A program made the position numbers and the translations under genes. 64,000 bases of DNA from Bifidobacteriaceae bacterium. GTDB lineage: Bacteria > Bacteroidota > Bacteroidia > Bacteroidales > Marinilabiliaceae. This document shows positions 10,771 through 63,768 of the stretch, piece after piece. The notes below the pieces were generated by a model. The model was not told the origin of the DNA and ran no database searches. It worked only from the letters and a program-made list of their open reading frames with translations. Numbering within the stretch: position 1 is the stretch's first letter; each line of letters opens with the position of its first letter. Location: assembly GCA_963607345.1 (NCBI GenBank), contig CAVDBL010000004.1, forward strand, positions 73,627 to 137,626, read 5' to 3'.

Positions 10771-10777
10771 ATTACAA

Positions 10778-24210: not shown

Positions 24211-24216
24211 CCACTC

Positions 24217-47136: not shown

Positions 47137-47550
47137 TTAAGCCTCTTTATTCTCTTTTTCGTCTTCCTCGTTCTCGCTTACGAGACCATGGGCGAGAAGA
47201 ATGTTGTACCAAGAGACGAGCTTCTTGATGTCGGAGACGTAGATGCGCTCAGAGTCCCACTCGGGGAGGGCCTTGCCCATGAACTCTTTGAGCTCTTCGT
47301 TGGATGCTTTGGCGCTAATGCACTCTTTGCCGCCCGTGAGCTTGAAGATGTTTGCCATGACGTGAGCGAGTGTGACGTCTTCGCCAGTGGTGTACATGGA
47401 GATCTCGTGGAGAGAGCTTACGCGGGAAGTGCCGCTAACGGGGGTGCGCTTGCCGTCGGTGAGAGACTCGACGATGATGGCGTTTTTGCCTTGGGAGACG
47501 AGCTTGAAAAGCCCGCTTTTGCCTGATATTGAAAGAATACCTTCTAACAT
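47137..47550 (-). CDS. Small conserved cytoplasmic protein (possibly DUF5606-like)
   Basis: MLEGILSISGKSGLFKLVSQGKNAIIVESL... from the ATG at 47550, with host codon usage. It is the last host-like gene before the composition break. The family name is a weak recollection. Confidence 0.5.
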   Translation of the reverse strand: MLEGILSISGKSGLFKLVSQGKNAIIVESLTDGKRTPVSGTSRVSSLHEISMYTTGEDVTLAHVMANIFKLTGGKECISAKASNEELKEFMGKALPEWDSERIYVSDIKKLVSWYNILLAHGLVSENEEDEKENKEA

Positions 47551-47847
47551 CTTTTTTGTTAGTTCGTTTATCTTGGTAGTTGTCGCCCATGGGGTGGAGG
47601 GGTGAGCCTCACAGCCACGTGGGCATGATTTTTTATTACGTCGCAAAGATAAATTCTTCGAGCCATACTCTGAAATTTTTTATTGGAAGCCCTCTTGCGA
47701 GTGACGTAAAAATATCTAATTTAGCGTCTATAAAATAAGCCCCAGTAAATAGCTGAATTACAGTAAGTTGCAAAATTTGCTTTTGAGCTTTATTGGCGTT
47801 TTTTGTTCTGATTTTCGGTATAAAATCCCCGATTTCATACCCCGAAA

Positions 47848-49071
47848 ATGCAGACCTTTTCTACAGAAATCAAGTTGAGTTTCCTCTTGAGGAACACCAA
47901 GTCAACAAGTCCAACAGTTATTTATGCTTATTTAAGATTCAGAGGCAAGTTTAAAAAGTTTCCGACTGGAGTTAAGGTGTTACCTAAACACTGGAACAGG
48001 GACGCTCAATTTGCGGTCACAGGGGGTAAAATAACGGCTTTAGACAAGAGCGCCAATGTAAAGTGCAATGAAGTTTTAGAGTTGATTAGAAGGCGTTTCA
48101 AGGAGGTCGTAGAGGAGGTTGAGGGTAACGATATTCTTGACAAGGTTTACGGTCTCTTGACTGGTAAAGAAGACTGTAGCCTGCTTGACGCTTTAAACGA
48201 GGTTGTCAAGGATAAAGGCGCAATGTATCGTTTAGCTGTTGAGTGGTTAAGCAGGTACTTAAAGGAGAATCCTATTAACGTAAAAGAGCTTAATAAGATT
48301 TATCTTGAAGGTTTTAAGGAGTGGTTTTTGAGGAGCGGCAAACAGGCTATTTACATGAAGACTTTATGCTCCTGTTTAAAAACCTCATTCAAGGAGGCTA
48401 ATCTAAAAGGGCTTATAGACGACGATACATACAGCAGAATAGCCTTTTATAAATTCAACATACAGGACAAGGCGAACAGGGTTAAACCGTTCCTTTACGA
48501 CAATGAAGTAATACAGCTGTACAACGTAACAACAGAAACGGAGGACGAACGTACTGTTGTAGACCTCTTTATTCTTGAATGTACATTAGGTCAACGTGTT
48601 GGCGATACAGGGCGAATAGACGAATGTGTCAAGAAGGTAGGCGACAAGTGGATTCTGGAGCTTGTTCAGCAGAAGACGAAGAAAAGGGTCGTTTGTGATG
48701 TTCTTTTCAAGCTGCCAATAGAGATACTGGAGCGCAACAGGTTTAACATTCCCGAAATAGACATAAGCCGCTACAATAGGCTTATTAAGAAATTAGCTCA
48801 ACGAGCTGGACTGAACAGGCTTTTTGAGGTTGAGAAGCACAGCGCCACGACAACGGTAGAGAAGAAACCTTTATACTCAATAATATCAAGTCATGTAGGC
48901 AGGCATACGTTTGACGCTTTATTAAGGATGCGAGGTTACACCCCAGCTCAAATAACTAAATACAGCGGTCATTCAGAAAAAGAGGTGTTAAGCTATACGG
49001 CTGCTTTTTACGAGGACCGTGATATAGCGTATTATGAGGCTTTAAAAGTCAAGCTTGAAATGATAAAATAA
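47848..49071 (+). CDS. Tyrosine-type site-specific integrase (phage integrase family)
   Basis: Catalytic-domain residues LGQRVGD (Arg), HVGRHTFDALL (H-x-x-R) and YSGHSEKEVLSYT (His/Tyr). 407 aa with no in-frame TAG. Stop is TAA. Confidence 0.9.
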   Translation: MQTFSTEIKLSFLLRNTKSTSPTVIYAYLRFRGKFKKFPTGVKVLPKHWNRDAQFAVTGGKITALDKSANVKCNEVLELIRRRFKEVVEEVEGNDILDKVYGLLTGKEDCSLLDALNEVVKDKGAMYRLAVEWLSRYLKENPINVKELNKIYLEGFKEWFLRSGKQAIYMKTLCSCLKTSFKEANLKGLIDDDTYSRIAFYKFNIQDKANRVKPFLYDNEVIQLYNVTTETEDERTVVDLFILECTLGQRVGDTGRIDECVKKVGDKWILELVQQKTKKRVVCDVLFKLPIEILERNRFNIPEIDISRYNRLIKKLAQRAGLNRLFEVEKHSATTTVEKKPLYSIISSHVGRHTFDALLRMRGYTPAQITKYSGHSEKEVLSYTAAFYEDRDIAYYEALKVKLEMIK

Positions 49072-49077
49072 GGGATT

Positions 49078-49173
49078 AAAAAATCCACTGAGGCATTACT
49101 ATTAAGTATTCAGTAAACTGAATACTATATAAAGGTTCGCCGCCTTGCAGGCTGCTTTACCAGGACGTTTAAC
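49078..49173 (+). repeat. Imperfect direct repeat, copy 1, upstream of the suppressor tRNA
   Basis: Shares AAAAAATCCACTGA, CAT(T/A)ACTA, TATATAAAGGT and GACGTT(T/C)AAC in the same order as 49339-49420. Contains the hairpin GTATTCAG taaa CTGAATAC. Confidence 0.6.
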
Positions 49174-49221
49174 ATTTATTACTTTATAAAGAATAATACA
49201 ACAGGTAGTATTACTAAAGAA

Positions 49222-49293
49222 TCTCCCATGGTGTAAAGGCAAGCACACCGCTCTCTAAAAGCGAAGGTTTCAGTTCGAATCTGAATAGGAGGA
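49222..49293 (+). tRNA. Suppressor tRNA, anticodon CUA (reads UAG); amino-acid identity probably Gln
   Basis: 72-nt cloverleaf. Acceptor TCTCCCA/TAGGAGG (U1.G72 wobble and one C6.A67 mismatch). U8. D-arm GTGT-AAAGGCAA-GCAC. Anticodon stem CCGCT/AGCGA (4 bp plus a terminal mismatch). Loop CTCTAAA with CTA at 49255-49257. 4-nt variable loop. T-arm TTCAG-TTCGAAT-CTGAA. Discriminator A. Confidence 0.8.
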
Positions 49294-49338
49294 CTATTAA
49301 TATGTAAAGTGTTGATTTATAATAGAATATAATGCAAG

Positions 49339-49420
49339 AAAAAATCCACTGATACATAACTACTAAATATAATACTACGTATTATATATATAAAGGTAGA
49401 CCGTCCTACAGACGTTCAAC
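49339..49420 (+). repeat. Imperfect direct repeat, copy 2, downstream of the suppressor tRNA
   Basis: See 49078-49173; same ordered sequence blocks. Confidence 0.6.
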
Positions 49421-49526
49421 CAAGAATCAAAAATTTTCTGTATATATAGTGAAAGGGAATTGTGAAGAGACAAATAATAAAGAACTGAATATATTAACGC
49501 AAACGTATTTTTTCATATTTAAGTGG

Positions 49527-49552
49527 GGTGTTACGAAACACCTTGCTTTTTT
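49527..49552 (+). terminator. Candidate intrinsic terminator closing the tRNA/repeat region
   Basis: GGTGTT acga AACACC followed by TTGCTTTTTT. Confidence 0.5.
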
Positions 49553-49591
49553 ATGAAAATTCTTTATTATTTTTCTGCATTTTCTTTTGGA

Positions 49592-49611
49592 ATATTCTTG
49601 AAAAAGAATAT
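49592..49611. promoter_or_regulatory. Perfect 8-bp inverted repeat (operator-like) upstream of the HTH gene
   Basis: ATATTCTT gaaa AAGAATAT, 34 nt upstream of the ATG at 49645. Confidence 0.4.
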
Positions 49612-49644
49612 ATTTATAATATAATAATTAAACAACATAACGTT

Positions 49645-50463
49645 ATGAAAAAATACGTTTGTATAAACAAGAACATATTAGGGTTAAACCTTAACCAAGT
49701 ACGAATCTACTTCACAATGAAGAAGTGGACGAATAAGCACGGTATTTGTGATTTAACCCAGCATCAAATAGCAGAAAGAAGTGGTGTGCCTTATGATACT
49801 GTAATTGACAATATGACTAAAGAGTTTTACGCAGCCGCCAATTGCAGGGTTAAGAAGGTACACGTTGATTCTTATATATTCCGTAACATTTATCATTTTA
49901 CCGAGAAGAAGTTTGTGTTAATTAAAGAGGACTTCTTAAAGGTGAACGCTGACAAAAAGCTTAAAGCACTTGTTATTCTGCTCAAGCTCCTTTGTTTTAA
50001 AAATTCCAACAAGTTGGCTTATAATAAGGCTCAACTTTGCGAATTGCTTAATATGTCAAGACCTACTCTTAACAAGTACCTTAAAGCAGCTATTGAGGCT
50101 GGACTTATTAAGTATAATAAGAACTGTATTGAAATTACTTGTGCTGGCGTAACTGTCAGTGCAGTAAATTTCAACAAGTTAAGCGACGGTGATAAGGCTT
50201 ATGCTGTTATTAGTAATTATTGTGAGGCACGTGGCGTTAAGGCTCCACGTTACAACAAAAGACTGGTCAACGAGCTTAACCTTGCTTGGAATGAAGGTAA
50301 AGACAATAATGTAAATTATGCTGTTGTCAATATTATTAAGAGGCTCAACCGCTGCAACATTAAAGTTGGCAAATCATATAGTCTTGCTTATTTTCTCAAG
50401 GTTCTGCTTAACACTAAACTTGACATTAGGCGCAACGCAACTGTTTATATGACAATGAATTAA
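49645..50463 (+). CDS. Putative DNA-binding protein with two HTH/winged-helix segments (replication initiator or regulator)
   Basis: LTQHQIAERSGVPYDTVIDNM and NKAQLCELLNMSRPTLNKYLKAAIEAGLI look like HTH units. No in-frame TAG. Stop is TAA. The ATG at 49645 is used rather than the listed 49528. Confidence 0.55.
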   Translation: MKKYVCINKNILGLNLNQVRIYFTMKKWTNKHGICDLTQHQIAERSGVPYDTVIDNMTKEFYAAANCRVKKVHVDSYIFRNIYHFTEKKFVLIKEDFLKVNADKKLKALVILLKLLCFKNSNKLAYNKAQLCELLNMSRPTLNKYLKAAIEAGLIKYNKNCIEITCAGVTVSAVNFNKLSDGDKAYAVISNYCEARGVKAPRYNKRLVNELNLAWNEGKDNNVNYAVVNIIKRLNRCNIKVGKSYSLAYFLKVLLNTKLDIRRNATVYMTMN

Positions 50464-50473
50464 TATTACAAGT

Positions 50474-50719
50474 ATGAACGAAGAGGAATTATTAAAGCAA
50501 GCAATGAGCGTCCCTGAAGAAAAAGCGAATAAATTAACGACGATACTTAATAATACACGTCGTAGCAGAAGGGATTCAGAATCTCTTATTGAGGAGTTAA
50601 TAGAGAAAAGAAAACGAGTAGCCGAAAACAGGATTAACTTCAGCAGCTTAACGGAGGAGTGCAGACGTATAAATAAAATACTTGATAAAAATAAAAAATA
50701 TGATATAGAATTTTCTTGA
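50474..50719 (+). CDS. Small charged hypothetical protein
   Basis: 81-aa ORF with no in-frame TAG. Stop is TGA. Confidence 0.45.
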   Translation: MNEEELLKQAMSVPEEKANKLTTILNNTRRSRRDSESLIEELIEKRKRVAENRINFSSLTEECRRINKILDKNKKYDIEFS

Positions 50720-50816
50720 TAAGCTTGAAAAATATTTAGAAAAAGCTTATTATTATAGAGCGGAAATAGCGACAACATTTTTAACAGCTGTAATACTGTA
50801 CATGATATTCGGATAA
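50700..50816 (+). CDS. Possible 38-aa membrane peptide (needs TAG read-through at 50706)
   Basis: MI[TAG]NFLDKLEKYLEKAYYYRAEIATTFLTAVILYMIFG, stop TAA. Short, so uncertain. Confidence 0.3.
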
Positions 50817-50833
50817 GAATAAAAAAAACAATT

Positions 50834-51079
50834 ATGACAACACAAGAACAAATTAATAAAATAACTGAAGAGCAAAATAAAATATAGAATGCTATATTAA
50901 AGCTGCAAAAAAATACTGAAAAGCTTCAGAATAATACGTAGAAATTAGAGAAGAGTATTCAAGAGACCAAACTTCAACAAGAACAGTTAATGAAAAACAC
51001 TTACAGGTTAAGTTAGCGTTTAGAGGAATTGTTTTTTGAAATAGAGAAATTTAAATAGCAGGTAGGCTACACTTCATAA
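50834..51079 (+). CDS. Gln-rich coiled-coil protein, 81 codons with 4 in-frame TAG
   Basis: MTTQEQINKITEEQNKI*NAILKLQKNTEKLQNNT*KLEKSIQETKLQQEQLMKNTYRLS*RLEELFFEIEKFK*QVGYTS. TAGs at 50885, 50939, 51014 and 51056. Stop is TAA. Confidence 0.55.
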
Positions 51080-51135
51080 TTCATGTCTATATTCAGCTTT
51101 AATTAGCTGGGTATAGACTTTATATGTTTATTTAT

Positions 51136-51324
51136 ATGCAATAGAAAACACAATTATTTTGCGCTATATTTTTAATAGTAGTTGGCGCAATATTACTTAT
51201 CAGCGGCTTTATAGTTCCACCTGTAGGCATTATAGATTCAAGCGTCCTTGTAGCATTTGGCGAGATATTGACTTTTGTAGGTTCGCTTTTTGGAATAGAT
51301 TATCATTATAGATATAAAAAATAA
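51136..51324 (+). CDS. Small two-TM membrane protein (1 in-frame TAG)
   Basis: MQ*KTQLFCAIFLIVVGAILLISGFIVPPVGIIDSSVLVAFGEILTFVGSLFGIDYHYRYKK. TAG at 51142. An alternative in-frame ATG is at 51124. Stop is TAA. Confidence 0.45.
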
Positions 51325-51401
51325 TGTTATTTATTTTGTTTTATTAATTAGAATATTTATATTTATAATGTAAGAGAACAAAAGCTCTTGTATTATTAAT
51401 T

Positions 51402-51833
51402 ATGAAGTGCAATTTAATAGCAGAAAAGGCTTCACGCAACAGACTTGATTAGATGTTGGGATATGAAGCAGGCAAAGGTCCTATAGTCTGGGACGAAATA
51501 AAAACAGAAGAAGACATATATAATCATTACGACGGAGTTTACGGCGATTACCTTGTAGAGCTTAAACAGTTGAGTTATAAAGGTAAAGGCTTAATGGTAG
51601 ACAAATAGAAGATAAATTGGTTACAGGAGGCTGTAAAAGAGTTGAAGAAAAACGATGCTTTAGTTATTTGGACTATAGAAGGGACTAAAGATATTTATGC
51701 AGTATCAGTTAAATAGCTTGATAAGTATATGAAGAACGGTACAGCTTGGATTCAATATTTGTCAACGGACAACGGTTATAAACCTGTAGTCTTTATTAAT
51801 TTTGAAAAAGCTTGTTATAGGGAGGGAATATAA
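51402..51833 (+). CDS. Putative VRR-NUC / PD-(D/E)xK-like nuclease (3 in-frame TAG)
   Basis: ...DGVYGDYLVELKQLSYKGKGLMVDK*KINWLQEAV... has the D...ExK motif and then a Q..W-type motif whose Q is the TAG at 51606. The other TAGs are at 51450 and 51714. Stop is TAA. Family is from memory. Confidence 0.5.
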
Positions 51834-51835
51834 TT

Positions 51836-52051
51836 ATGAGACTGGACGCAAGGTATTACACATATACTGAACAATAGAGGCTGGAGCTTACAGATTTTTG
51901 TAAAGCCCACGGAATTAAGACGATTAACCACCTAACAGAATACCTGTTAGATTCAATATTAAACGGACATTATGTTATTAAACATGGAAAAGAGCTGTTA
52001 CGACCAGATAAAAAGAGAATAGGGAATAGTGGAGAAGGCTGTAAGGAATGA
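51836..52051 (+). CDS. Hypothetical protein (1 in-frame TAG)
   Basis: MRLDARYYTYTEQ*RLELTDFCKAHGIKTINHLTEYLLDSILNGHYVIKHGKELL... TAG at 51875. Stop is TGA. Confidence 0.4.
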
Positions 52052-52391
52052 CGCTGTATTTACGCTGTATGAGCGTTTTAAAAGACTTCTTCCAAACTCA
52101 AATCATGAACTATTGAGCGATACGTTATTGAAGTTGACTGTTACTTATGATCCCAACAGGGATTTTATAGAGCAGTTCAAGGAGACTTGGGATTAGTTGG
52201 CTCAATGTTTTTAGAGGTCTAATTATTACTCGAAAGGTTATCACGTCTCATTGGAGGATATACCGAATCCTGAAGAGGAGGAGCGGAACGCGTATGATAT
52301 TATTAATGATAAGGAGTTAATAAAAGATGCCGTGGTTGAAACAGCTGCAAAGGCGACCAAAAGCCGAAAGCGAAGAGAGAAAAAAGCGTAA
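51972..52391 (+). CDS. Hypothetical protein with basic C-terminus (3 in-frame TAG)
   Basis: Open only if the TAGs at 52020, 52194 and 52212 are decoded: ...FTLYERFKRLLPNSNHELLSDTLLKLTVTYDPNRDFIEQFKETWD*LAQCF*RSNYY...KSRKRREKKA. Stop is TAA. The start is uncertain (ATG 51972/51984 or GTG 52029). Confidence 0.42.
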
Positions 52392-52719
52392 AGAGATTTA
52401 TAATACAGAACGTTGGCGCAAATTGAGGGGCGGCTATTTCATGTAGCACCCTTTATGCGAACTCTGTTATTAGAAGGGTATTATTAGAGAAGCGACGGAC
52501 GTGCATCATGTCATTTCACCGTTCAGCAGTGAACAAGGGAAACAAAACCCTTTACTTTATGCTTATGACGCTGACAACTTGATAAGCTTATGTAAAGAAT
52601 GTCATTCAGAATTGCACGGAAACAAACAAGAAGAATCATTATACGATATTTATTATGAACGAAAAATTAAGCAAACAACAATTACTGAAGAAGATACAGG
52701 ACGTGACGAAATGCAGTGA
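52327..52719 (+). CDS. HNH endonuclease (terminase-associated type), 2 in-frame TAG
   Basis: ...YNTERWRKLRGGYFM*HPLCELCY*KGIIREATDVHHVISP...NLISLCKECHSELHG has the classic phage HNH layout. TAGs at 52444 and 52471. Stop is TGA. Confidence 0.85.
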
Positions 52720-53053
52720 TACGACAACAGAATATGTATCACTTGTTATAGACGGTTTGGAGCAGCAGGGAAAACTTGACGCTGTAGATTAGGGGGCTTT
52801 AATACTATTGGCTAATTCTTATAATTTACAGCTTAAAGCAGTAGAGGAGCTTAACAAGTCAACCTTGCTGGTAATGAACGGAAACACGCCAATGAAGAAT
52901 CCGCTTGTGCAGATAATAGTATCTTGTCAAGGTTTATGCGTAAGAATAATGCAGGATTTTGGTTTAACTGCACGTAGTCGAAAATACCTTAACAAGGGAG
53001 AAGAGAAAAAGGAAGTTGAAGAGAGCGCACTTGATTCATTTTTAAAGAGTTAA
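52655..53053 (+). CDS. terS: Terminase small subunit (P27-family-like), 1 in-frame TAG
   Basis: MNEKLSKQQLLKKIQ...LDAVD*GALILLANSYNLQLKAVEELNK...NPLVQIIVSCQGLCVRIMQDFGLTARSRKYL. TAG at 52790. Stop is TAA. Confidence 0.78.
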
Positions 53054-53057
53054 CATT

Positions 53058-53642
53058 ATGAAAGAGTATCTTAAATACGCTTAGGATACTGTTAGTAGTG
53101 AAAAAGCAGGCAACCTTATAAAGTTATCATGCAGCAGGTTTCTTAATGATTTAAGAAGAGAGGATTTAGAGTTTAGGGAAAATGAAGTAGACCGCTGCAT
53201 AAACTTTATAGGGTTGTTCAAGCATTATACTGGTTCACATTCTGGAAAACAGTTCAAGCTTGAACCTTGGCAATAGTTTATAGCAGCCAACATTGTAGGG
53301 TTCTATTGGAAAGGGACAAACAGGAGGAGGTTTACTAATAGCTATATAGAGGTTGCTAGAAAAGCTGGCAAGAGCTAGCTGGCAGCAGCCTTATGCTTAT
53401 ACTTCTTAATTGCGGACAAGGAGGACGGTGCTGAAGTCCTTTTGGCGGCAAACAGTAAAGATTAGGCTAAAATAGCTTTTGAGATGTGCAGCGTTTTCGC
53501 CAAACAGCTTGACAAGACAGGTAAAAAGCTGATTTGTTACAGGGCTGATATACTTTTCAACACTACTAACAGCAAGCTTAAATGTTTAGCTGCTGACGAT
53601 TCTAAACTTGACGGCTTTAACGCTTCATTTGGTCTTATTGAT
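53058..53642 (+). CDS. terL: Terminase large subunit, exon 1 (195 codons, 4 in-frame TAG)
   Basis: MKEYLKYA*DTV...FKLEPWQ*FIAANIVGFYW...VARKAGKS*LAAALCLYFLIADKEDGAEVLLAANSKD*AKIAFEMC...FNASFGLID carries the Walker A motif and the start of Walker B. TAGs at 53082, 53274, 53376 and 53463. Confidence 0.88.
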
Positions 53643-54591
53643 AAATATTTGTCAATGTAAAAGTACTTTAATTACGGGAAACTCCTAAAGTTCGCAATAC
53701 CAACTTAATAAAGTGATTTATTAAGGGCTAAACTAATCATTTAGAGAAGGTAACAAGTTGCGAAATTGGAAAATCCGTAACCAAGCAACTTTTTTAAAAG
53801 TTGAAGGTTCAACGACTACCGAAAGCACATCTTTTAGGTGGAAGCAAGTAGGGTACAATGTAAGCTAATGACATTGGAAATGGGTGCAGTCTACATACGT
53901 GTATTTCATAATACTTTAATAATAAGCGAGATGAAAATATATGTATTAAAAGATCCTCGGAATGATTAGATTAGGTATGTAGGGGTGACAACGCAAGCTT
54001 TAAATCAAAGATTATCACAACATATAAACGCCGCTAAAAAGAACGAAATGAGACACGTTTGTAAGTGGATAAAAGTTTTGTTAAAGCTTGAATTACGACC
54101 TATTATTGAGCAAATAGATGAAGTTGATAATGAGCAGTGGTAGGAATGGGAGGTTTATTATATCTCATATTATCGGAAAATTGGGTGTGAACTTACAAAC
54201 ATTGATAAAGGAGGAAACGGTGTAGTTTCTGCTGAAAAGAGGTCAAAGGATTCAATGTTAAGAAGCTCCGAAAAACACAAGAAACCTGTTTATCAACTTA
54301 ATAGGAACCTTGAAATAATAAAAGAGTGGAAATCTGTAACAGATGCCTGTAATGAGTTGGGGTATAAGCAAGCCAATATCGCCAACGCCTTACATAAAAA
54401 AATAGGAGCTTATGGGTATTTATGGTGCAGGGTTTCTGAATTTGCGAACTATAAACCTAAAAGTAATTATCTAAATCCAAGAGGATGTAAGTAGATTAAG
54501 ATATAGTCTTAACTCTTGAGAAATCAAGAGCAGTTTGTGGGAAAATACCCACCGCTGTACTATATTTTGCGAATATAGTAAAAAATAATTG
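53643..54591 (+). mobile_element. Group I self-splicing intron (phage IA-like core) interrupting terL and carrying a homing endonuclease gene
   Basis: P1: exon end ATTGAT (53637-53642) pairs with the intron sequence GTCAAT (53651-53656), with a U.G pair at the splice site. The last intron nucleotide is G (54591). Joining the exons restores GAT|GAA TTT CAC = LIDEFH. Core-like elements are AACGACTA (53811), AAGTAGGGT (53846) and the hairpin CAATGT...ACATTG (53856/53871). Confidence 0.82.
53931..54512 (+). CDS. Intron-encoded GIY-YIG homing endonuclease with C-terminal HTH-like DNA-binding module (4 TAG read as sense)
   Basis: MKIYVLKDPRND*IRYVGVTTQALNQRLSQHI...EQW*EWEVYYISYYRKIGCELTNIDKGGNG, then ...VYQLNRNLEIIKEWKSVTDACNELGYKQANIANALHKKIGAYGYLW. 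TAGs at 53967, 54141, 54492 and 54504. Stop is TAA at 54510. Confidence 0.82.
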
Positions 54592-55626
54592 GAATTTCAC
54601 TCGGCTAAAAACAGTAAAGTACGTGATGTTATCAAGAGTTCAATGGGTATGAGGTCAAGACCACATTTATGTACGATAACTACAGCAGGATTTAATAAGA
54701 ACAGTCCTTGTTACGAGTTAAGGACAACTTGTTGTGAAGTGCTTAAAGGTATAAAGCAGGACGATTCTACTTTTGCCGCTATATATTCACTTGACGAGGG
54801 TGACGACTGGAAGAATCCTGAAGTTTGGGCAAAATCGAACCCTAATTTAGGTGTTACAGTATTTCCAGAATACTTAAAAGAGCAGGTTAATTTAGCTATT
54901 AATAATCCAAGCGAGGAGGTTGGGGTAAAGACTAAAAACCTTAATATGTGGTGTGATGTTTCCGACGTTTGGATTAATGATATATCACTGGTTCAAAACT
55001 CAAAACAACTTGATTTAAGCGTATTTAAAAACCGACAAGTTTATGTGGGCGTGGATTTAGCCGCAACAGGAGATTTGACCGCCGTATCATATATGACTGA
55101 AATTGACAATGTAAAATACTTTTATGTAAAGTACTATTTGCCAAGCTCTTGTCTGGACGGTAAAAAGAACTCTTATAATTACAGAAATTGGAAGAATAGC
55201 GGCTACTTGACAGTTACGGAGGGTAATGTTACAGACTACGACTACATTACTAAAGATATGCTGGAGGTTGCCCAAAATGCTCAAATATGCAATGTTGCTT
55301 ATGACAATTGGAACAGTACGCAATGGGCTATAGACGCTGTTTCAAAAGGTCTGCCGCTAAATCCTTATAGTCAGTCTATTGGCAATTTTAACAGACCTAC
55401 AAAAGAATTTGAGCGGCTTCTATACGGTGGAGGAATAGTAATAGATTCAAATCCGATTAACAGGTTCTGCTTTAAAAACGTCGTGTTAAAAACAGACCAT
55501 AACGGAAACAGCAAACCGAGTAAAGAGAGTTATAATAATAAAATAGACGGTGTTATAGCGATGCTTATGAGTTTAGGAGGTTATCTGCAAACACCAAAAT
55601 ATAATAATCAAATTTTTTCTGTATAA
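54592..55626 (+). CDS. terL: Terminase large subunit, exon 2 (nuclease half)
   Basis: EFHSAKNSKVRDVIKSSMGMRSRPHLCTITTAGFNKNSPCYE...VGVDLAATGDLTAV...IDGVIAML, Terminase_1-like. No TAG. Stop is TAA. Confidence 0.88.
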   Translation, partial: EFHSAKNSKVRDVIKSSMGMRSRPHLCTITTAGFNKNSPCYELRTTCCEVLKGIKQDDSTFAAIYSLDEGDDWKNPEVWAKSNPNLGVTVFPEYLKEQVNLAINNPSEEVGVKTKNLNMWCDVSDVWINDISLVQNSKQLDLSVFKNRQVYVGVDLAATGDLTAVSYMTEIDNVKYFYVKYYLPSSCLDGKKNSYNYRNWKNSGYLTVTEGNVTDYDYITKDMLEVAQNAQICNVAYDNWNSTQWAIDAVSKGLPLNPYSQSIGNFNRPTKEFERLLYGGGIVIDSNPINRFCFKNVVLKTDHNGNSKPSKESYNNKIDGVIAMLMSLGGYLQTPKYNNQIFSV

Positions 55627-55639
55627 TAGAAAAGAAGAT

Positions 55640-56866
55640 ATGAAATTTATCGATTTTTTTAAACGAAATAGAAGTCCTTAGGAAACTGAAAAACGTTCAT
55701 TGTTTGGTGACGCATTGACTTATGCGGGTTCACCAAACACTATTAGTGAGTATAAGTCGATGCTGTTGAGTACAGTTTACCGTTGTGTAGACTTGATAAG
55801 CAACAGTGTTGCCTCGCTGCCTTTTGAGCCTTATGAGGTTTCTTGTGACGGCTATAGAAAGAAGCTGCACGACCACCCTATATATCATGTACTTAATTAT
55901 GAGCCAAATGAGCGAATGACAAGGTTTATATTCATGAAAGCACTTGTTACGAGCATGATATTGAGGGGTAACGGTTATGCTTATATAGAGCGTGATAAAC
56001 TTGGTAATGTCATAAAGCTTGATTACCTTGATTCTGACAGGGTTAGCCCTATTATAGACTACACGAGCAACACTATTAAGTATTATGTAGTATCTGGTTA
56101 CAAGGTACCACGAGTGGAGCCTATAAACATGATACACTTGATAAACTTTACTTATGACGGCATAACTGGAGTATCAACATTAAAGAGCGCAAGAGGTTGT
56201 CTTTCAGCTGCTTATAATGCAGAACAGACTGCTGCTGGATTCTTTACAGGAGGTTGTAATGTTGGCGGCATACTTAAAGTTCAAGGAATGCTTAATGAAG
56301 TGCAGAAACAACAGCTAAAGTCAAGTTGGCAACAGGCGTTCAGTCCTGCTACAGGTCAACCAAATGGTGTAGCTGTTTTGGAGGGAAATATGGACTTCAG
56401 TCCTATAACGGTGAATCCTGCTGACGCTCAACTGCTTGAGAGCAGGCAATATAACGTTATAGATATTTGCCGTTTTTTTGGAGTTAACCCTACAAAAGTA
56501 TTTGACTTGACAAAAGCCTCTTATTCAACGGTGGAGGCTGAAAACCTGCAATTCTTGAACGATACGCTTCAACCGATAATAGAGAAAATAGAGCAGGAGT
56601 TTCAACGGAAACTATTTAAACCAAGTGAAAAAGCGCATACAATAGTACGATTCGATACCAGCTCAATGTTGAGGACTGATAAGAACAGTCAAGCTTCATA
56701 TTACTCAACTTTATTCAATATGGGTGCAATGAGCATCAACGAAATACGAAAAGCACTTGATTTAGAGCCTATTGAAGGTGGTGATACTCATTATGTGCAG
56801 GTTAACATGGGTGCTACAAACAATAACGAAATAAATGAAGAAGGAAATAAGGAATTACAGGAGTGA
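55640..56866 (+). CDS. Portal protein, HK97 family (1 in-frame TAG)
   Basis: MKFIDFFKRNRSP*ETEKRSLFGDALTY...STVYRCVDLISNSVASLPFEPY...NGYAYIERD... TAG at 55679. Stop is TGA. Confidence 0.9.
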
Positions 56867-57374
56867 AACCACCTTTAACGAAAGGCGTGTAACTGGTTAC
56901 GCTGTTGTGTTTAATAGTTACTCGCATGATTTAGGCGGTTTTAAGGAGATAATAGAGCCTACTGCCTTGGACGGGATAATAGAGATTTCAGACGTGCTAT
57001 GCTTAATGAACCACGACGAGGACAGGGGTGTTTTAGCACGCTCAAAATACGGAAAAGGGACGTTGGAGTTGACAATAGACGAACACGGCTTAAAATACAG
57101 TTTTGAGGCTCCACATACAGCTTTAGGAGACGAGCTTTTAGAGGGGCTTAACAGGGGCGATATTACGACCAGCTCTTTTGCCTTTACCGTCGCTGAAGAG
57201 CAGTGGGATAAAGACGAGACTGGAGTTGATATTAGAATCATAAAGAAAATAGACAGACTTTACGACGTTTCGCCAGTATATCAGGAGGCTTATCCTGATA
57301 CGGACGTTGCGCAACGGAATCACAAGCAACATTTGGACAATTACTTTTTAAAACTCAGAAAATCAATAATTTAA
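56835..57374 (+). CDS. Prohead maturation protease, HK97 family
   Basis: ...RVTGYAVVFNSYSHDLGGFKEIIEPTALDG...CLMNHDEDRGVLARS...TSSFAF... No TAG. Stop is TAA. Confidence 0.87.
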   Translation: MKKEIRNYRSETTFNERRVTGYAVVFNSYSHDLGGFKEIIEPTALDGIIEISDVLCLMNHDEDRGVLARSKYGKGTLELTIDEHGLKYSFEAPHTALGDELLEGLNRGDITTSSFAFTVAEEQWDKDETGVDIRIIKKIDRLYDVSPVYQEAYPDTDVAQRNHKQHLDNYFLKLRKSII

Positions 57375-57378
57375 CATT

Positions 57379-58656
57379 ATGAAGAACATAAATTCACTTC
57401 AAATTTTGGACAAGAAATTAAATTTACAGAAGAGGGCTACGGCTCTTTTCGATAAGGCTGAAGAGGAAGGACGTATGCTTACTGAAGACGAGCAAAAGCT
57501 TTACGAGGAAATTAAGGCTCAAATCGCTGAACTTGAAAAGCAGAAGAGTGAACTTGAGGCAAAACTGAACGAAGAAGCTTCCGACGAGGAAGAAGATAAA
57601 GAAGAGGCTTCCGACGACGAGGAAGACGACGAGGATAAAATTGAACAAAACAAACGAAACAAAAGGAATATGAAATTTAGTCTTTTAAAAGCTATTAATA
57701 GCGTAGTAAACAACCGTTCTCTTGATGAGGACGCTCAAAAAGTCATTACCCGTGGCGTAAACCAGATGCGTAATTCTGGACTTTCTTATGGTGGTCAAAT
57801 ATAGATCCCTATTGAGAACCGCGCGACGGACGGCACCTTGACTGGAGGCAATTTAAAGTCCACGACAACAAACGGAGGCAAGGAAGCTGTACCTACTGAT
57901 ACTCTTGATATTTTGACCGCCCTTCGCAACAAGCTTGTTTTAGTTCAAGCTGGTGCTACTTGCATGAACGGACTTGTAGGCAATGTTGAGATACCTGTTT
58001 ATTCTGGTTCCACTGTAGGTTGGGAAGGTGAAGTAGACGCTGCTACAAACGGCACTGGTACAATGAGTTCTGTAGAGCTTTCTCCAAAACGCATCACCGC
58101 TTATGTTGACGTTTCCAAGCAGTTCCTTATCCAGACTTCCGACGCTGCTGAAGCAATGTTGAAGAATGATATTGTTGAGGCTATATCCAATAAGCTTGAG
58201 GAAACTATTTTAGGTACTGAAGCTGGTTCTAACAAGAAACCTGCTGGTATACTCAACGGTGTAACTGCTGATACTACTGCTGTTAAATATGCTGATATTG
58301 TCTCTATGGAGGCAAGTCTTGAGGCTGCAAACATTGACGGTGATTACAAGGTAATCGTCTCCCCTACAGCAAAGGCTAAACTCAAGACCACTTCTGTTGA
58401 CGCTGGCTCTGGACGTTTCATTATGGAATCCAACGAGGTTGACGGCTATGAGGCTTTAACCACTAATGCAGTTCCTGCAAACGGTGTTATTTTCGGCAAT
58501 TTCAACGAGCTTGTCATTGGTCAGTGGGGTGCTTTTGACGTAACTGTTGACCCTTATACTCAAGCTGCGAACGGAAAGGTTAGACTTGTCGTAAATGCTT
58601 ATTTTGACGCTAAGCTTCGTCGTTCTGGAGCAGTTGTCGGTAAAATACTTGCTTAA
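57379..58656 (+). CDS. Major capsid protein, HK97 family, with N-terminal coiled-coil/acidic delta domain (1 in-frame TAG)
   Basis: Two listed ORFs (57379-57804 and 57838-58656) share a frame and are joined by the TAG at 57802 (GGQI*IPIENRA). The C-terminal part (...LRNKLVLVQAGATCMNGLVGNVEIPVYS...YFDAKLRR) is typical of HK97 MCPs. Stop is TAA. Confidence 0.9.
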
Positions 58657-58709
58657 TTAATCTGGAGGGGCTGGAGTAGGCTTCAGCCCTTCTTTTTATA
58701 CTTAATATC

Positions 58710-59006
58710 ATGGTGACTTTAGAAGAGGTAAAAACACATTTAAATATTGATTCCGACTATACAGCGGACGATACTTATTTAAATTGGCTTATAGAAGTTG
58801 CCAGCGAATCTATACTAAATCAGCTTGACTGGAGTGAAACTGAAGACGCTGAAGTAGAATACCCTAAAGCGGTGAATCACGCAATATTGATGCGAATAGC
58901 AGAACTTTATAACAACAGGGAGGAGACTACTTCAAACAGTGTCAATTAGAGGACTAAAGCGGCTGATTTCCTTGTGAGCCAGCATAGACGTTATACAATA
59001 GCATAA
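58710..59006 (+). CDS. Head-tail connector (gp6-like) protein (1 in-frame TAG)
   Basis: MVTLEEVKTHLNIDSDYTADDTYLNWLIEVASESI...AILMRIAELYNNRE...VN*RTKAADFLVSQHRRYTIA. TAG at 58947. Stop is TAA. Confidence 0.68.
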
Positions 59007-59008
59007 TT

Positions 59009-59392
59009 ATGGAAGCAGGGCGTTTAGACAGTCTTATAAAGCTTTACAGGCTTGATAAGGACACGGTTGACAAATACGGGCGTAAAGACAGGGTGTATAG
59101 GCTTGTTGGAGAAAAAAGATGCAACATGAGAATTGAGAGCGGCAACCCTGTTGTCATACAGGACGCTTTAACATATTCATATACGGCTTCATTCTGGTTT
59201 AGGCGTTTTGTTGAAATTGGGGTTTATGATTTAATAGTTTACAGCCCTAATAAAGAGAATGACACCAAAAGCCTTTAGGAGGTTTTTCTGGTTGATACTG
59301 TTATCTACAACAGACAGGAGGACCGAAAAGAGGTGAAGGCGCACAGAATAGACTGGGAGGCTGTTAAATTCAAAATAGACAATGGGCAATAA
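59009..59392 (+). CDS. Head closure / head-tail adaptor protein (1 in-frame TAG)
   Basis: MEAGRLDSLIKLYRL...KRCNMRIESGNP...TKSL*EVFLVDTVIYNRQEDRKEVKAHRI... TAG at 59276. Assigned from position and size. Stop is TAA. Confidence 0.6.
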
Positions 59393-59789
59393 ATTTGAGT
59401 ATAAAAAGCTCAAGCGTAAACTCCAAAAACTCTCAAGGGACTACTTTAAACCTGTTAGAAAATACCTTAATCAAGCAGGAAAGACAATATCAAGCGCAGC
59501 AAAAGCGAACTTTAAAGGAACAGGAATAAGCAAAGAACTTGCAAAAGGGATTTCGCACAAGGTTTGGAAAACAGGTACTGGTGTTTATATAGGCTTAAAA
59601 AAAGACTTTAGGTTGACATTTTTTGAAAAAGGAACCAAGGAGCGTTATCATAAGGATAAGCACTATACAGGTCAAATCCAGCCTTATTTCTTCTTTAAGA
59701 GTGCAGTGGACAATAACCTTGAGGCTGCTCAAAAAATCATACAGGACGGAGTAAACGAACAAATCAATGAGCTTAATAAAGACAATTAA
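59382..59789 (+). CDS. HK97 gp10-like tail-attachment/neck protein
   Basis: 135 aa; ...AAKANFKGTGISKELAKGISHKVWKTG...YFFFKSAVDNN... Assigned from position in the module. No TAG. Confidence 0.55.
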   Translation: MGNKFEYKKLKRKLQKLSRDYFKPVRKYLNQAGKTISSAAKANFKGTGISKELAKGISHKVWKTGTGVYIGLKKDFRLTFFEKGTKERYHKDKHYTGQIQPYFFFKSAVDNNLEAAQKIIQDGVNEQINELNKDN

Positions 59790-60198
59790 ACTGACACCAG
59801 AAATCTCTATATACTTGAAGAAGGTATGTGAAAATGCAAATTTAACATATTACCCTTTAATAGGCGATGCTGACGCTGAAGCCCCTTATGTTGTATATTA
59901 GAGACTTTCACAAGAATTAGATAACTCCAAGGACGGAGAATTTGGCATGAACGCTTCATTTATAGTGAAGTTTGTCGCTGCCACTTATTCGGAATCCCTT
60001 GAAATGTTGAAGAAGTTCGCTGAAAACCTTTTCATTGAGGACGGAATAGAGACGACAGAAGAGGACGGCACGACCACTGAAGCTCCTTTTGAGGAGTTCA
60101 CTGTTGTTGACGTATCTATTACGGATAACGGTGAAGAGTGGTCCGAGAACTACTTTATCAATACAATAACAGTAAACATAACTTATAATTTAAAATAA
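59767..60198 (+). CDS. Tail completion / neck protein candidate (1 in-frame TAG)
   Basis: MSLIKTIKLTPEISIYLK...YYPLIGDADAEAPYVVY*RLSQELD...; the PYVVY motif recalls DUF3168-type proteins. TAG at 59899. Stop is TAA. Confidence 0.5.
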
Positions 60199-60199
60199 A

Positions 60200-60661
60200 A
60201 TGAACAGCACTTATAAAGGCAAAAACCTTCAAGTCCTTTTAAATAATAAATCTATTGCATTGGCAACCAGTCACAGTCTTGATATCAGCATATCTACTGT
60301 TGATATTACAACTAAAGACGATAACGGAATGTTCACCAATAGCGCAGCGTAGAGCGTTTCGTGGACAATGAGTTCTGATAACCTTGTCAGCTACGGAACC
60401 GACGGCGCAAGCACTGTAGACGTTATTGACATGGCACTTGTAGGAACCAAGGTTACACTTATTTTTGGACTGGTAACACCACTTGACGCTTCAGTACCAA
60501 CTGGAGGGTTCACGAAGAACAGCACTGCTGAAGATGCTTTTGCTTATACTGGCGATGCTATTATCACAAGTGTTTCTGTTTCAGCTGCTAACGGTGAACG
60601 TGCTACCTACAGCATATCGTTCCAAGGTTGCGGAGAACTCAAAAAGGTTTCAAATAGCTGA
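60200..60661 (+). CDS. Major tail protein (TP901-1 / Phage_tail_2-like), 1 in-frame TAG
   Basis: MNSTYKGKNLQVLLNNKSIALATSHSLDISISTVDITTKDDNGMFTNSAA*SVSWTMSSDNLV...ANGERATYSISFQGCGEL. TAG at 60350. Stop is TGA. Confidence 0.75.
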
Positions 60662-60683
60662 TAATTAATTATTTAGACATGAA

Positions 60684-60719
60684 GAGTGGTTGGTGGTCTT
60701 CACCACCACTCTATTTTTA
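60684..60719 (+). terminator. Intrinsic terminator after the major tail gene
   Basis: GAGTGGT(T)GG ... CCACCACTC hairpin followed by TATTTTTAT. Confidence 0.55.
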
Positions 60720-60768
60720 TTTGTATTTGTCAAGTCTTATCGTTATATTAGAAGAAAACAATAAGACT

Positions 60769-61026
60769 ATGAATATCATATCAAAACTCATAAAGTATAT
60801 AAAGGACAGAAAAGCAGCCAAGAAAGAGGCTGAATTTCAAAGAATGTTTAAAGCGGAACTTGAACGCCAAAAAGAAACAGAAGAGATTAGGAAGTACCTA
60901 AAAGACAATAACATAGATATAACTATAAATTATGTTAGTGAGAAACCTGTTAAAGAAGAGAAATCTATTTATGAGGAGTGCTGGGAATATCTTGGCATAT
61001 ATGGAATGAAAAACCCATTTGATTAA
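60769..61026 (+). CDS. Small charged hypothetical protein
   Basis: MNIISKLIKYIKDRKAAKKEAEF... The ATG at 60769 is used because the listed start (60679) lies inside the terminator hairpin. Confidence 0.4.
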   Translation: MNIISKLIKYIKDRKAAKKEAEFQRMFKAELERQKETEEIRKYLKDNNIDITINYVSEKPVKEEKSIYEECWEYLGIYGMKNPFD

Positions 61027-61032
61027 GCAATT

Positions 61033-61338
61033 ATGAAAATATCGATTAAAAATTAGGAATTAGCTGTAAAGCATACTATTAGAACGACAATGACTTGGGA
61101 GGAGCTTAAAGGAGGAACTTTTAAGCTTGAGAATACTTCTGATGCTATTAAGTATATGTGGATATGTACAAAGTCTTATAATGATACAGATATTACGTTT
61201 GAGGATTTTTTGGACGGAATAACAAAACGAAATTTGGAGGACTTTTTGGAAGAGATAACGAATAAGGAGCAGCCAAAAAAAAAGAGCTTTCTGAGTAGAC
61301 TGTTTCAACGGCTGAAGTGTTTGCTTGGTTCACGTTGA
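61033..61338 (+). CDS. Tail assembly chaperone (gpG-like), 1 in-frame TAG
   Basis: MKISIKN*ELAVKHTIRTTMTWEELKGGTFKLENTSDAIKYMW... It lies immediately upstream of the tape measure gene. TAG at 61054. An A9 run lies near the 3' end. Stop is TGA. Confidence 0.65.
61275..61283 (+). promoter_or_regulatory. Slippery A9 run: candidate programmed -1 ribosomal frameshift site (G to G-T)
   Basis: CC AAA AAA AAG in the zero frame contains the A_AAA_AAA heptamer. The -1 frame is open from 61266 to 61619 if TAG is decoded. Confidence 0.6.
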
Positions 61339-61619
61339 GTTTAGGGCTTGAACCAGAATATGTGTTAGACCGAATGACAAGACAAGAGGCGGCTGCTTTA
61401 ATGAAGTATTCTTATTATAAGAATAAAGTAGACTGGGAGCGTACACGGTTTAACGCTTATTGTACAGTTCAGATTCAAAGTAAAAAGAGAATAAAACCTG
61501 AAGACTTAATAAAGTTCAACTGGGAAAAAGAATCAGAAGTGCATATACCAACAGACGAGGAAATTAAGCAAGTAGCAGAATGGGCTAAACAAATTCGTAA
61601 AAAATAGGAAAATGAGTGA
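61281..61619 (+). CDS. gpT-like extension of the tail assembly chaperone, reached by -1 frameshift (2 TAG in this frame)
   Basis: The -1 frame reads KKKELSE*TVSTAEVFAWFTLSLGLEPEYVLDRMTRQEAAALMKY...AKQIRKK*ENE. TAGs at 61296 and 61605. Stop is TGA at 61617. Confidence 0.55.
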
Positions 61620-63768
61620 TATAAAAATAAATCTTGAACTTGATTCAAGTAAGTTCTCTAAATAGTTTGAATCTTTTGGAAAAACGTTTGAAAATGAGTT
61701 TTCCGCTTGTCAAAAGTCTATTACGGCTACAGAGGACGAGATTAAACAGTTGACAGAAGAATTAAGCAACTATACAAAAGAGAGCGAGAATTATAAGGAA
61801 ATAGCCAAGTGGATTCAAGACGATAACAAGAAGCTTGAGGAGTAGAAAAAGTAGTTCACATCACTACAAAATTCAATAGGTGCTTACGCTCAAAAAATTG
61901 AGGAGGCATCAAAAAAACAGACAGCTTTAACTAACAAGCTTAGCAAGCTTGACGTAAATTCTGACGAGTACAAAAAAGTTGTCAAGGAAATAAAGAATTG
62001 TCAGGAGGAGCAGGAAAAGTTTAGGGGTAAAATAACAAAAGCTACAAAATCTTTAGGTGAACAAGTACCAGTCGTAAAGAGGGTTGGAAAGGCTATTACC
62101 AGTGCAGCTGGAATATTCAACCAAATATCGTGGGCTATACAGCAATTACAAGATTTATTTGAGGAGCTGTATGAGAGTTGTGAGCCTTTTGCTGAAATTG
62201 TAGACTATATTTCTGGAGCTGTTGCTGCTTGGTTTGCAATGGTAAAGAAATATATTGGAGCGTTAGTTAAGCTGTTTACAGGGGATTTTTCTGGGGCTAT
62301 TAACGACTTCAAGGAAATTGTTACAGGCGTAGTTGATACTGTAGTGCGAGTAGCAAAAGCTACAGCATTATTAAAGAAACAAATACGTGAATTGGATAAG
62401 GCTTTACTTGACTTTTCAAATCAAACTTCCGTCTTGACCACTAATATTGAGGCTTATAAGAAAATCATAGAAGACAGCACGACGAGTGTTCAACAGAAAA
62501 AAGACGCTTTAACGGCTTTAAAGAACACATATGAGTAGCTTAATTCAGTTTTAAAGGATCAGAGAAAACAACAACAGGATATAATAAAGTCCACTATTAA
62601 TGCGAAGTTAGCGACGACGAAATTAAACGACGTTACTGCTGAGCAAACACAGTCGTTTGTTGACCTCATGAGGACAGGGCAAACCTTATCCGAATCAATG
62701 AAGGAGGCTTTTGGTGAAGATGTGTACAAACAGCTCAGTCAGTCTGAACTAAAGGATATTAATGAACAATTCAATAAAATAAAAGAAACCGATAAACAAA
62801 TCATTGATTCCAACAAGCAGATAAGAGAAAGTGAAAAATCAGTACAAAAAGCTATTAAAGAGGCTGCTGATAACAGTTACAAGCTTAAAGACAGTTATAA
62901 AGAATCCAGTGAATACCTTGAGGCTCAAAAGACTAAACTTGAAGAAGCGAAGAAGCGAGTTGAACTTTATTCTGAAGAGTGGAAACAAATTGACAAACAG
63001 ATAAAAGACATAGACAACATTCTTAAATACGGCAAAAACACAATAGAGTTTAAAGTCAAGTTGAATATGTCTGATTAGGAGTTTACTGATTTTGAGAAGT
63101 ATGTAAAAGACAACCTAAACAACACTCTTGAGGGGCTTAATACGGAGCAGATACAGGAGTTTTATGCTTAGTGGCTTGAAAGTCTTAGAATTGTCAATGA
63201 TACAAATAACGACTTGAACGAATCTTTAATAACAGGAACTTCTTTAATTTAGAGAGAATCTAAAGGAACTGAAGATATAGCTCAAAACAAACAACAGGAG
63301 CAGGAGGCGCAACAGAATTTAGTATCAGCTTATAATGATACCGCTTCAGCTATTGGTGATGTTACAGGCGAAACGGAATTAGCGGCTCAAGCGCAACAGG
63401 CAATGAACCTTGCTTTACAGATCCAGGCAATGGCGCAAGCTATTTCAACAGCCGCTGAAGGAGATCCTTATACAGTGGCTTTACGTATAGCCGCCGCTTC
63501 CGCTGCTGTTGTTGCTGGCATGGCAAAATTCACCAAATTCGCTACAGGTGGTATTGTTGAGGGTCAATATCAGACTGGTGATATGAACCTTGTCGCAGTC
63601 AACGGAGGTGAAATGATACTTAACAAGAATCAGCAGGGCAATTTGTTCAGACTTATCCAAAACGGTACAATAGGCGGTCAAGGTGGAGATGTTCAGTTTA
63701 GAATTTCTGGTAAAGACCTTGTCGGTACACTTAACAACTACAATAAATACAACTCATTAACAAAATGA
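61612..63768 (+). CDS. Tail tape measure protein (718 aa, 7 in-frame TAG)
   Basis: Four listed ORF fragments (62239-, 62668-, 63403- and the unlisted N-terminus) share one frame and are separated only by TAG (61663, 61843, 61852, 62536, 63076, 63169, 63250). Long coiled-coil sequence, a hydrophobic AAASAAVVAGMAKF segment and a C-terminal GGEMILNKNQ motif. Stop is TGA. Confidence 0.85.

Follow-up and report, generated by a model that had tools for sequence, protein, structure and literature searches.

We analysed a 64,000-nucleotide stretch of DNA (the window; contig CAVDBL010000004.1 of assembly GCA_963607345.1, positions 73,627 to 137,626 of the forward strand), which contains the left part of a prophage, and found in it a gene that probably encodes a functional, phage-borne amber-suppressor transfer RNA (tRNA) derived from glutamine tRNA (tRNA-Gln).

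49222..49293, + strand: predicted amber-suppressor tRNA with anticodon CUA and a glutamine-type body (ARAGORN, Rfam RF00005 and D-arm search)

ARAGORN called a tRNA with anticodon CTA at 49222..49294 (+ strand), and the Rfam tRNA model RF00005 spanned 49222..49293 end to end (49.4 bits with a gathering score of 29, E = 1.5e-7, model positions 1-71 of 71); the host tRNA-Glu genes scored 61.1 bits with the same model. Both programs thus bore out the 72-nt cloverleaf with a CUA anticodon that had been proposed in a preliminary description of this DNA. In the entire window ARAGORN found three tRNAs, two host tRNA-Glu(CUC) and the CUA tRNA. No second tRNA was found by ARAGORN in the phage segment and no second tRNA-like match by Rfam in E-value mode in 47600-55000 and 55000-64000, in agreement with the earlier claim that this is the sole tRNA of the visible phage segment. 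Direct reading of the sequence gave an acceptor stem UCUCCCA/UAGGAGG that includes U1.G72 and C6.A67, the linker U8 G9 between the acceptor and D stems, a D stem GUGU/GCAC enclosing an 8-nt D loop (AAAGGCAA) with G18 G19, A26, an anticodon stem CCGCU/AGCGA, a 7-nt anticodon loop C-U-CUA-A-A in which U33 precedes the anticodon and a purine stands at 37, a 4-nt variable loop (AGGU), a T stem UUCAG/CUGAA, a T loop UUCGAAU and the discriminator A73, with CCA not encoded. U1.G72, C6.A67 and A73 had all been described before and are all present, and we add to them a second C.A apposition at 27:43. Furthermore, every residue engaged in tertiary contacts is kept (U8, A14, G18, G19, A21, U33, G53, T54, T55, C56, A58 and C61). 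The folding energy was about that of shuffled sequences (z = -0.16); tRNAs commonly give poor single-sequence folding z-scores. These results collectively indicate that the tRNA at 49222-49293 is real and that its anticodon is one predicted to read UAG. As described earlier, it lies between an integrase gene and a helix-turn-helix (HTH) gene, both of which were supported by Pfam, and a block of TAG-rich phage genes follows.

47848..49071, + strand: tyrosine integrase, TAG-free, at the left prophage end (Pfam Phage_int_SAM_5 and Arm-DNA-bind_5; 0 TAG among 10 Gln codons)
49645..50463, + strand: winged-helix HTH protein, TAG-free (Pfam HTH_Crp_2, HTH_24 and HTH_36; 0 TAG)
50834..63768, + strand: phage gene block that would need UAG read-through (38 in-frame TAGs in 17 genes; coverage by open reading frames, Pfam)

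Recoding of TAG was assessed from the coverage of positions 49300-64000 by open reading frames (ORFs) of at least 100 amino acids. Coverage was 61% with the standard code, 94% with TAG as a sense codon and 67% with TGA as a sense codon, while the host part of the window reached 97% with the standard code. When TAG was read through, 24 genes were modelled, 17 of which (71%) held the in-frame TAGs, the first at 50885 and seven in the tape measure gene. TAG accounted for 18.5% of the Gln-type codons of the modelled phage genes; these genes stopped at TAA (16) or TGA (8) and none at TAG, which ends 9 of the 34 long host ORFs. The TAG-bearing genes contained no in-frame TAA or TGA and were intact under genetic code 15, and 22 TAGs were common to the window and a 92%-identical relative (locus L324). 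No +4 base bias was detected, the base after TAG being no different from the base after CAA or CAG (P = 0.96). The integrase gene, the HTH gene and one small ORF adjoining the tRNA are free of TAG, so that their products could be made in the unmodified host code. Taken together, these results indicate that the TAG recoding of the phage segment is real.

The meaning of TAG was decoded from DNA-level tblastn alignments to 80 related IMG/VR loci, in which the profile of aligned sense residues in each column was scored per codon. As a control, 60/60 sense codons of the window genes were decoded correctly. Over the 11 alignable TAG columns of the window, glutamine scored +3.9 and the runner-up, serine, -8.3; glutamine held the majority in 4 of these columns at a mean frequency of 0.26, with corresponding values of 30% and 0.24 for true CAA and 32% and 0.31 for true CAG. 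Clade-wide decoding took every column in which any TAG-recoded relative has TAG, with profiles drawn from standard-code relatives only. Over 103 such columns, glutamine scored +58.8 versus -75.4 for glutamate, and 61/61 sense codons were correct. For the clade, the assignment of TAG to glutamine is well supported by these alignments, and for the window phage it is the best reading. Protein homologues of a 143-amino-acid ORF (92%-identical) with Q at all three TAG sites were discarded, as the underlying DNA has TAG there and the gene caller had already applied code 15. Homologues of the terminase large subunit (TerL) have Q at 2 of 4 TAG sites, a protein-level result subject to the same circularity and left unused. 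Since protein-level Q evidence is circular, the amino-acid inference was built on DNA-level alignments only. The phage proteins concerned (P0061-P0063, L324:605-1036) stand in the collection already translated with code 15, the locus failing to give the query under code 11. Between the window and L324 there were six TAG/sense differences (TTG, AAG, TGG, CAG, GCT and CGT), which are too few events to decide the amino acid.

The tRNA body was compared with other tRNAs in an anticodon-blind search that used the D-arm plus U33, left the anticodon free and took one genome per species, yielding at least 120 loci. Among the matches listed, 101 fell in genomic tRNAs and 90 of these (89%) were tRNA-Gln (CUG or UUG); the D-arm matches outside tRNAs were chance occurrences in coding DNA. 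The listed loci whose titles name Bacteroidota provided a sample of 16 tRNA-Gln genes, with U1-A72 in 15/16, G2-C71 in 15/16, A73 in 16/16, the D stem GUGU/GCAC in 15/16, a 4-nt variable loop in 16/16 and no encoded CCA. The sampled tRNA-Gln of Firmicutes and Proteobacteria had G73 and an encoded CCA. With the Bacteroidota tRNA-Gln the window tRNA shares U8-G9, GUGU/GCAC, G10-C25, the 4-nt variable loop, UUCGAAU, U1, A73 and the missing CCA. The preliminary description had listed A73 as an unusual detail bearing on the choice of synthetase; this did not hold, for G73 is the E. coli state and A73 that of the host phylum, which makes it no obstacle to glutamine identity. Positions 32, 37 and 38 of the anticodon loop are changed relative to Bacteroidota tRNA-Gln, and the anticodon is CUA and not YUG, which makes the tRNA a suppressor derivative rather than a tRNA-Gln in the decoding sense. 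Global pairwise identity did not discriminate between isotypes (0.76 to the best tRNA-Gln, 0.68 to the best tRNA-Glu). On these comparisons, the body of the window tRNA is judged to be of the glutamine type.

Next to the genomic tRNA-Gln, suppressor tRNAs of phages were compared. When IMG/VR was searched for the D-arm of the window tRNA with UCUAA after it, at least 120 loci were returned, and 62 unique CUA tRNAs were counted over all viral loci fetched. Among these 62, the 1:72 pair was U-A in 28, U.U in 12, U.G in 11 and A.C in 4, while A73 occurred in 49 and C2-G71 in 14. U1.G72, earlier regarded as unusual, is therefore a recurrent state of this class of phage suppressors. Across 29 phage CUA tRNAs, 16 of the 20 cloverleaf pairs showed compensatory double changes, and RNAalifold left 1:72 unpaired. 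A weak or open 1:72 pair is, by these counts, evidently a family trait of phage CUA tRNAs; a weak 1:72 pair is also typical of E. coli substrates of glutaminyl-tRNA synthetase (GlnRS). The nearest sequence among the matches listed was 78% identical to the window tRNA.

The link between CUA tRNAs and recoding was examined in the terminase relatives (L001-L080, IMG/VR), whose TerL is 52-73% identical to that of the window. Standard-code, TAG-recoded and TGA-recoded phages occur side by side in this one family, and within the aligned regions the in-frame stops of any one locus are almost exclusively of one kind. TAG-recoded relatives had 8-36 in-frame TAGs in their aligned parts and TGA-recoded relatives 4-13 in-frame TGAs. 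A CUA tRNA was present in 7/16 TAG-recoded loci versus 1/64 others (Fisher P = 2.6e-5), so that the tRNA is linked to recoding statistically as well as by position. One relative, L059 (3739-3810), carries a CUA tRNA although none of its 922 aligned codons is an in-frame TAG; a suppressor with no recoding to be detected fits the evolutionary route to recoding that has been proposed. Three TAG-recoded loci (L050:6365-6435, L055:5185-5255 and L057:9331-9401) carry a sister CUA tRNA with a UCUCC/GGAGG-A acceptor end and U1.G72, in which the T loop GGCGGAA replaces UUCGAAU. ARAGORN missed this sister tRNA, and suppressor tRNAs are thus under-counted in such phages. In two TAG-recoded relatives without a detected CUA tRNA, ARAGORN called an Ala(GGC) tRNA with an unusual T arm (CAGTCCGATTCTG; L048:1945-2016 and L049:5723-5795, the latter on the - strand).

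We propose that the tRNA would be transcribed, possibly as a co-transcript with the integrase, from the TAG-free left arm of the prophage, which we take to be a temperate siphovirus in a Bacteroidota chromosome. Its maturation would require RNase P of the host, processing of the 3' end and the addition of CCA. Host GlnRS would charge it with glutamine, as suggested by the glutamine-type body and by the glutamine found at homologous positions. On the ribosome, the CUA anticodon would pair with UAG and compete there with release factor 1 (RF1). Glutamine would then be inserted at the 38 in-frame UAGs, which are spread over at least 17 early, packaging and structural genes; at the sequence level this amounts to genetic code 15. 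Nearly all surveyed Bacteroidetes possess GlnRS and lack GatCAB (PMC3927822), which would make GlnRS the direct and only route to Gln-tRNA in this phylum. Suppressors of this type keep the acceptor-end features of tRNA-Gln of the host phylum, namely a weak or open 1:72 pair with U1, A73 and no encoded CCA, which points to the host GlnRS as the probable charging enzyme.

Several observations weigh against this proposal. We infer the expression, processing, charging and suppression of the tRNA from DNA sequence, and in the same way its role as the enabler of the recoding, which the preliminary description had called obvious, including its sufficiency against host RF1. The tRNA departs from Bacteroidota tRNA-Gln at C2-G71, G72, A36, A37 and A38, positions that matter for E. 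coli GlnRS. Within the family, 6:67 is mostly U.G and 27:43 mostly G.U; the window tRNA alone among the 29 has C.A at each, and both appositions lower its Rfam score. No convincing promoter for a Bacteroidota host could be called: the promoter scan gave only a sigma-70-like TTAACA-17-AATAAT at 49169-49197, a consensus uninformative for Bacteroidota, and no TAnnTTTG motif was seen by eye. In this one genome, the lack of TAG is not significant for the integrase by itself (P = 0.13), and it is only weakly so when the three TAG-free genes are taken jointly (P = 0.046). In addition, the window ends within the tail genes, with the right part of the prophage outside it. Finally, seven UAGs in the tape measure gene would mean that suppression is very efficient, or that RF1 is restrained by a factor that we do not see.

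The last point leads to the alternative that survives best and that is compatible with the proposed suppressor function, namely that the tRNA is necessary but not sufficient and that an additional factor (an RF1 antagonist, a phage release factor 2 (RF2), a tRNA modification or a second suppressor) is encoded in the unseen right part or in the small ORFs. We regard this as rather unlikely, although it draws on the 38 UAGs, seven of them in one essential gene, on a host RF1 that is presumably active, given the host ORFs that end in TAG, and on several small phage ORFs that have no Pfam match and leave room for such a factor. However, the anticodon loop carries A36-A37-A38, which is a favourable context for an amber suppressor, and the Pfam scan of 20 phage ORFs revealed no domain of a synthetase or a release factor, as the preliminary description had already stated for the visible part of the phage. 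RF2 genes are known from some TAG-recoded phages and suppressor tRNAs were detected in only 40% of TAG-recoded genomes, whereas small Garnet-type phages have been reported without synthetase or release-factor genes (bioRxiv 10.1101/2021.08.26.457843).

Another amino acid than glutamine, such as Glu, Lys, Trp, Tyr, Leu or Ser, whose codons are single-step neighbours of UAG, might be inserted by the tRNA. Several window TAG sites do align to other residues (in relatives, TerL 107 is matched by Ala, position 142 of the major capsid protein by Val, and two tail/connector sites by Lys and Arg), only one of the six TAG/sense changes relative to L324 is a Gln codon, and C2-G71 differs from Bacteroidota tRNA-Gln. 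The decoder nevertheless placed glutamine first, with the runner-up 12 log units behind at the window sites and 134 behind clade-wide, and columns with a Gln majority are as frequent as they are for true CAA and CAG. Furthermore, the D-arm is that of tRNA-Gln in 89% of the anticodon-blind matches listed, the variable loop is too short for a class II tRNA, which rules out Leu, Ser and bacterial Tyr, and TAG to Gln is the sole reassignment reported for such phages (PMC9523058; bioRxiv 10.1101/2021.08.26.457843). Insertion of an amino acid other than glutamine is thus very unlikely.

It is equally improbable that the prophage is defunct, the tRNA gene in it a decaying relic and the in-frame TAGs nonsense mutations. 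The two C.A stem appositions, the Rfam score of 49 versus 61 bits for the host tRNAs and the folding z of -0.16 would fit decay, whereas 38 in-frame TAGs without TAA or TGA in the same genes, ORFs that are intact under code 15 and the 22 TAGs shared with L324 argue against it. Moreover, a second strain (L201, metagenome-assembled genome GCA_963654305.1) shares the host flank, the integrase and the tRNA on a contig 98.2% identical over 15.7 kb, and there the tRNA is 100% identical although 12 differences lie in the surrounding intergenic DNA; the tertiary-contact residues are, as noted, all kept. Lastly, the position beside the integrase and the ARAGORN label 'tRNA-Pyl' might suggest a host tRNA gene used as the integration site or a pyrrolysine tRNA, and both can practically be dismissed, the former on anatomy, as the tRNA is surrounded by phage DNA of low GC content and is separated by the integrase from the host junction, which is upstream of 47848, and a standard-code host would not retain a CUA tRNA, the latter on its D loop with G18 G19, normal T loop, 5-bp anticodon stem, two linker bases U8 G9 and 4-nt variable loop, 'tRNA-Pyl' being merely the name that ARAGORN gives to anticodon CTA.

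The prophage that carries the putative suppressor is marked by its composition and gene order. GC content is ~52% up to ~47.7 kb and ~36% from the integrase onward, the drop falling across the integrase gene, and all genes from 47848 on are on the + strand. After the tRNA, Pfam matches gave the order winged-helix protein, small ORFs, HNH, TerS, TerL, portal, S78 prohead protease, HK97-type capsid, gp6-like connector, tail tube and tape measure. Contigs that carry a TAG-free tail gene are short and none reaches past the window end, and an exact look-up of the integrase returned no record. Comparison of window 47137-47847 with L201 placed the prophage at the identical chromosomal site in both assemblies; the L201 contig stops 94 nt past the tRNA, at window position 49387. 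No empty integration site was found from which to map attL. The high-GC host part encodes a protein with a type IX secretion system (T9SS) sorting domain, a PorP/SprF protein above the curated cut-off and a PorE-like protein, and these type IX secretion genes identify the host as a member of the Bacteroidota. The host part also contains a class A RNase P RNA at 10397-10773 (+ strand, 218 bits) and the two tRNA-Glu(CUC) genes, which are identical and 5.25 kb apart (18887-18959 and 24139-24213, + strand).

The TerL gene of the prophage is split over 53058-55626 (+ strand), with exon 1 ending at ~53642, exon 2 starting at ~54592 and an insert of ~950 nt between them. The joined exons (...FGLID|EFHSAKN...) agree with the consensus of the homologues. 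The insert matched the Rfam model RF00028 at 37.1 bits, which is below threshold. The relative L324 has an unsplit TerL of 881 amino acids and a weak LAGLIDADG match.

53643..54591, + strand: probable group I intron in the TerL gene, boundaries approximate (sub-threshold RF00028 at 53667-53826 and 54496-54528; exon junction)
53928-54512, + strand: GIY-YIG homing endonuclease ORF inside the TerL intron, with 4 in-frame TAGs (Pfam GIY-YIG)

The tRNA is bracketed by two copies of a direct repeat, and a terminator-like site follows the second copy.

49076..49170, + strand: ~95-nt direct repeat, upstream copy, with two hairpins (sequence comparison)
49337..49430, + strand: ~95-nt direct repeat, downstream copy (sequence comparison)
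49521..49548, + strand: terminator-like hairpin plus T-run, with a putative terminator function (consensus scan)

The repeat copies are ~70% identical, lie 261 nt apart from start to start and have the blocks AAAAAATCCACTGA and TATATAAAGGT in common. Each copy forms a perfect hairpin of 7-9 bp at an equal location with a differing sequence, and the second hairpin is maintained by two compensatory pairs. The shared motif occurred twice in the window versus 0.09 expected. No third copy was found by nhmmer in the window or in ~320 fetched loci, except for the copy of the same prophage in L201, and the repeat matched no Rfam family and had no exact match in IMG/VR. The hairpin at 49521..49548, downstream of the tRNA and of the second repeat copy, was the sole terminator-like site in 48900-49700. 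On this basis the tRNA might conceivably belong to a dedicated, regulated code-switch cassette made up of the TAG-free lysogeny arm, the repeats and the terminator-like site, an idea that we hold to be speculative and unlikely. If it were true and the repeats acted in cis as operators, processing sites or attenuators, the output of the tRNA could be tied to integrase transcription, and the prophage would keep nearly all its genes untranslatable in lysogeny and unlock them at induction by an undescribed mechanism.

The additions made here are modest: an explanation of A73 from the host phylum, the apparently family-wide weak 1:72 pair and the location of the gene, which sits in a lysogeny arm free of TAG. 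The window provides a clean, well-delimited code-15 prophage in a standard-code Bacteroidota chromosome. A span of 3 kb takes in the putative suppressor tRNA, the lysogeny genes without TAG and genes that depend on its read-through, and a second strain carries this prophage at the identical site. It also provides a testable proposal for the charging enzyme of such suppressors, namely the host GlnRS, and it illustrates three annotation traps: gene calling with the standard code breaks such prophages into fragments, the tRNA receives the label 'Pyl' from ARAGORN, and code-15 translations in protein databases make Q at TAG circular unless the codons are checked.

Among known systems, the window phage resembles most closely the TAG-recoded Garnet-clade prophages of Prevotella, in which the integrase is free of TAG and 71% of the genes contain in-frame stops; a separation of the lysogenic from the lytic programme has been put forward as the role of recoding (bioRxiv 10.1101/2021.08.26.457843). 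Like them, it is a small HK97-type temperate phage of low GC content in a standard-code Bacteroidota host, with a TAG-free integrase at the boundary, in-frame TAG in ~71% of its genes (here 17/24), TAG probably read as Gln, a phage CUA tRNA and no synthetase gene. The likeness was drawn from lifestyle, host phylum, size class and TAG usage. The place of the tRNA differs among relatives: in the window phage it stands beside the integrase within the ~95-nt repeats, whereas the terminase relatives have it 0.6-2.6 kb upstream of TerL. Neither GenBank phages (megablast with the 16-kb phage segment) nor IMG/VR yielded a near-identical phage, the best TerL identity being 73%, to standard-code relatives.

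Reading of TAG as Gln has been confirmed by mass spectrometry/metaproteomics in crAss-like phages (PMC9523058). The sole match to the window tRNA in GenBank phages comes from such a phage, cr125_1 (NC_055900.1, 75225-75298, annotated tRNA-Gln; 77.8% identity over 63 nt). Both tRNAs have a CUA anticodon, a glutamine-type D-arm, a 4-nt variable loop, A73 and a mismatched 1:72 (U.U in cr125_1). Unlike the window phage, cr125_1 is a virulent podovirus-like phage of ~98 kb, and its tRNA has an encoded CCA, G2-C71 and no integrase context.

E. coli supE (glnV44) is a tRNA-Gln with a CUA anticodon that is charged by GlnRS, a weak 1:72 pair being part of the recognition, and the window tRNA is likewise of the tRNA-Gln type with a UAG-reading anticodon. 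supE is a chromosomal point mutant with G73, G2-C71 and G3-C70, is moderately efficient and does not belong to a recoded genome. Pyrrolysine tRNAs have a short D loop without G18 G19, a one-base linker, a 6-bp anticodon stem, a 3-nt variable loop and an atypical T loop; the window tRNA has the CUA anticodon alone in common with them, and no pyl genes were seen nearby in the Pfam scan of 20 phage ORFs. Taken together, these comparisons suggest that the window tRNA is most probably one more glutamine-type amber suppressor of a code-15 temperate phage, a kind that has already been described and of which this is a new example.

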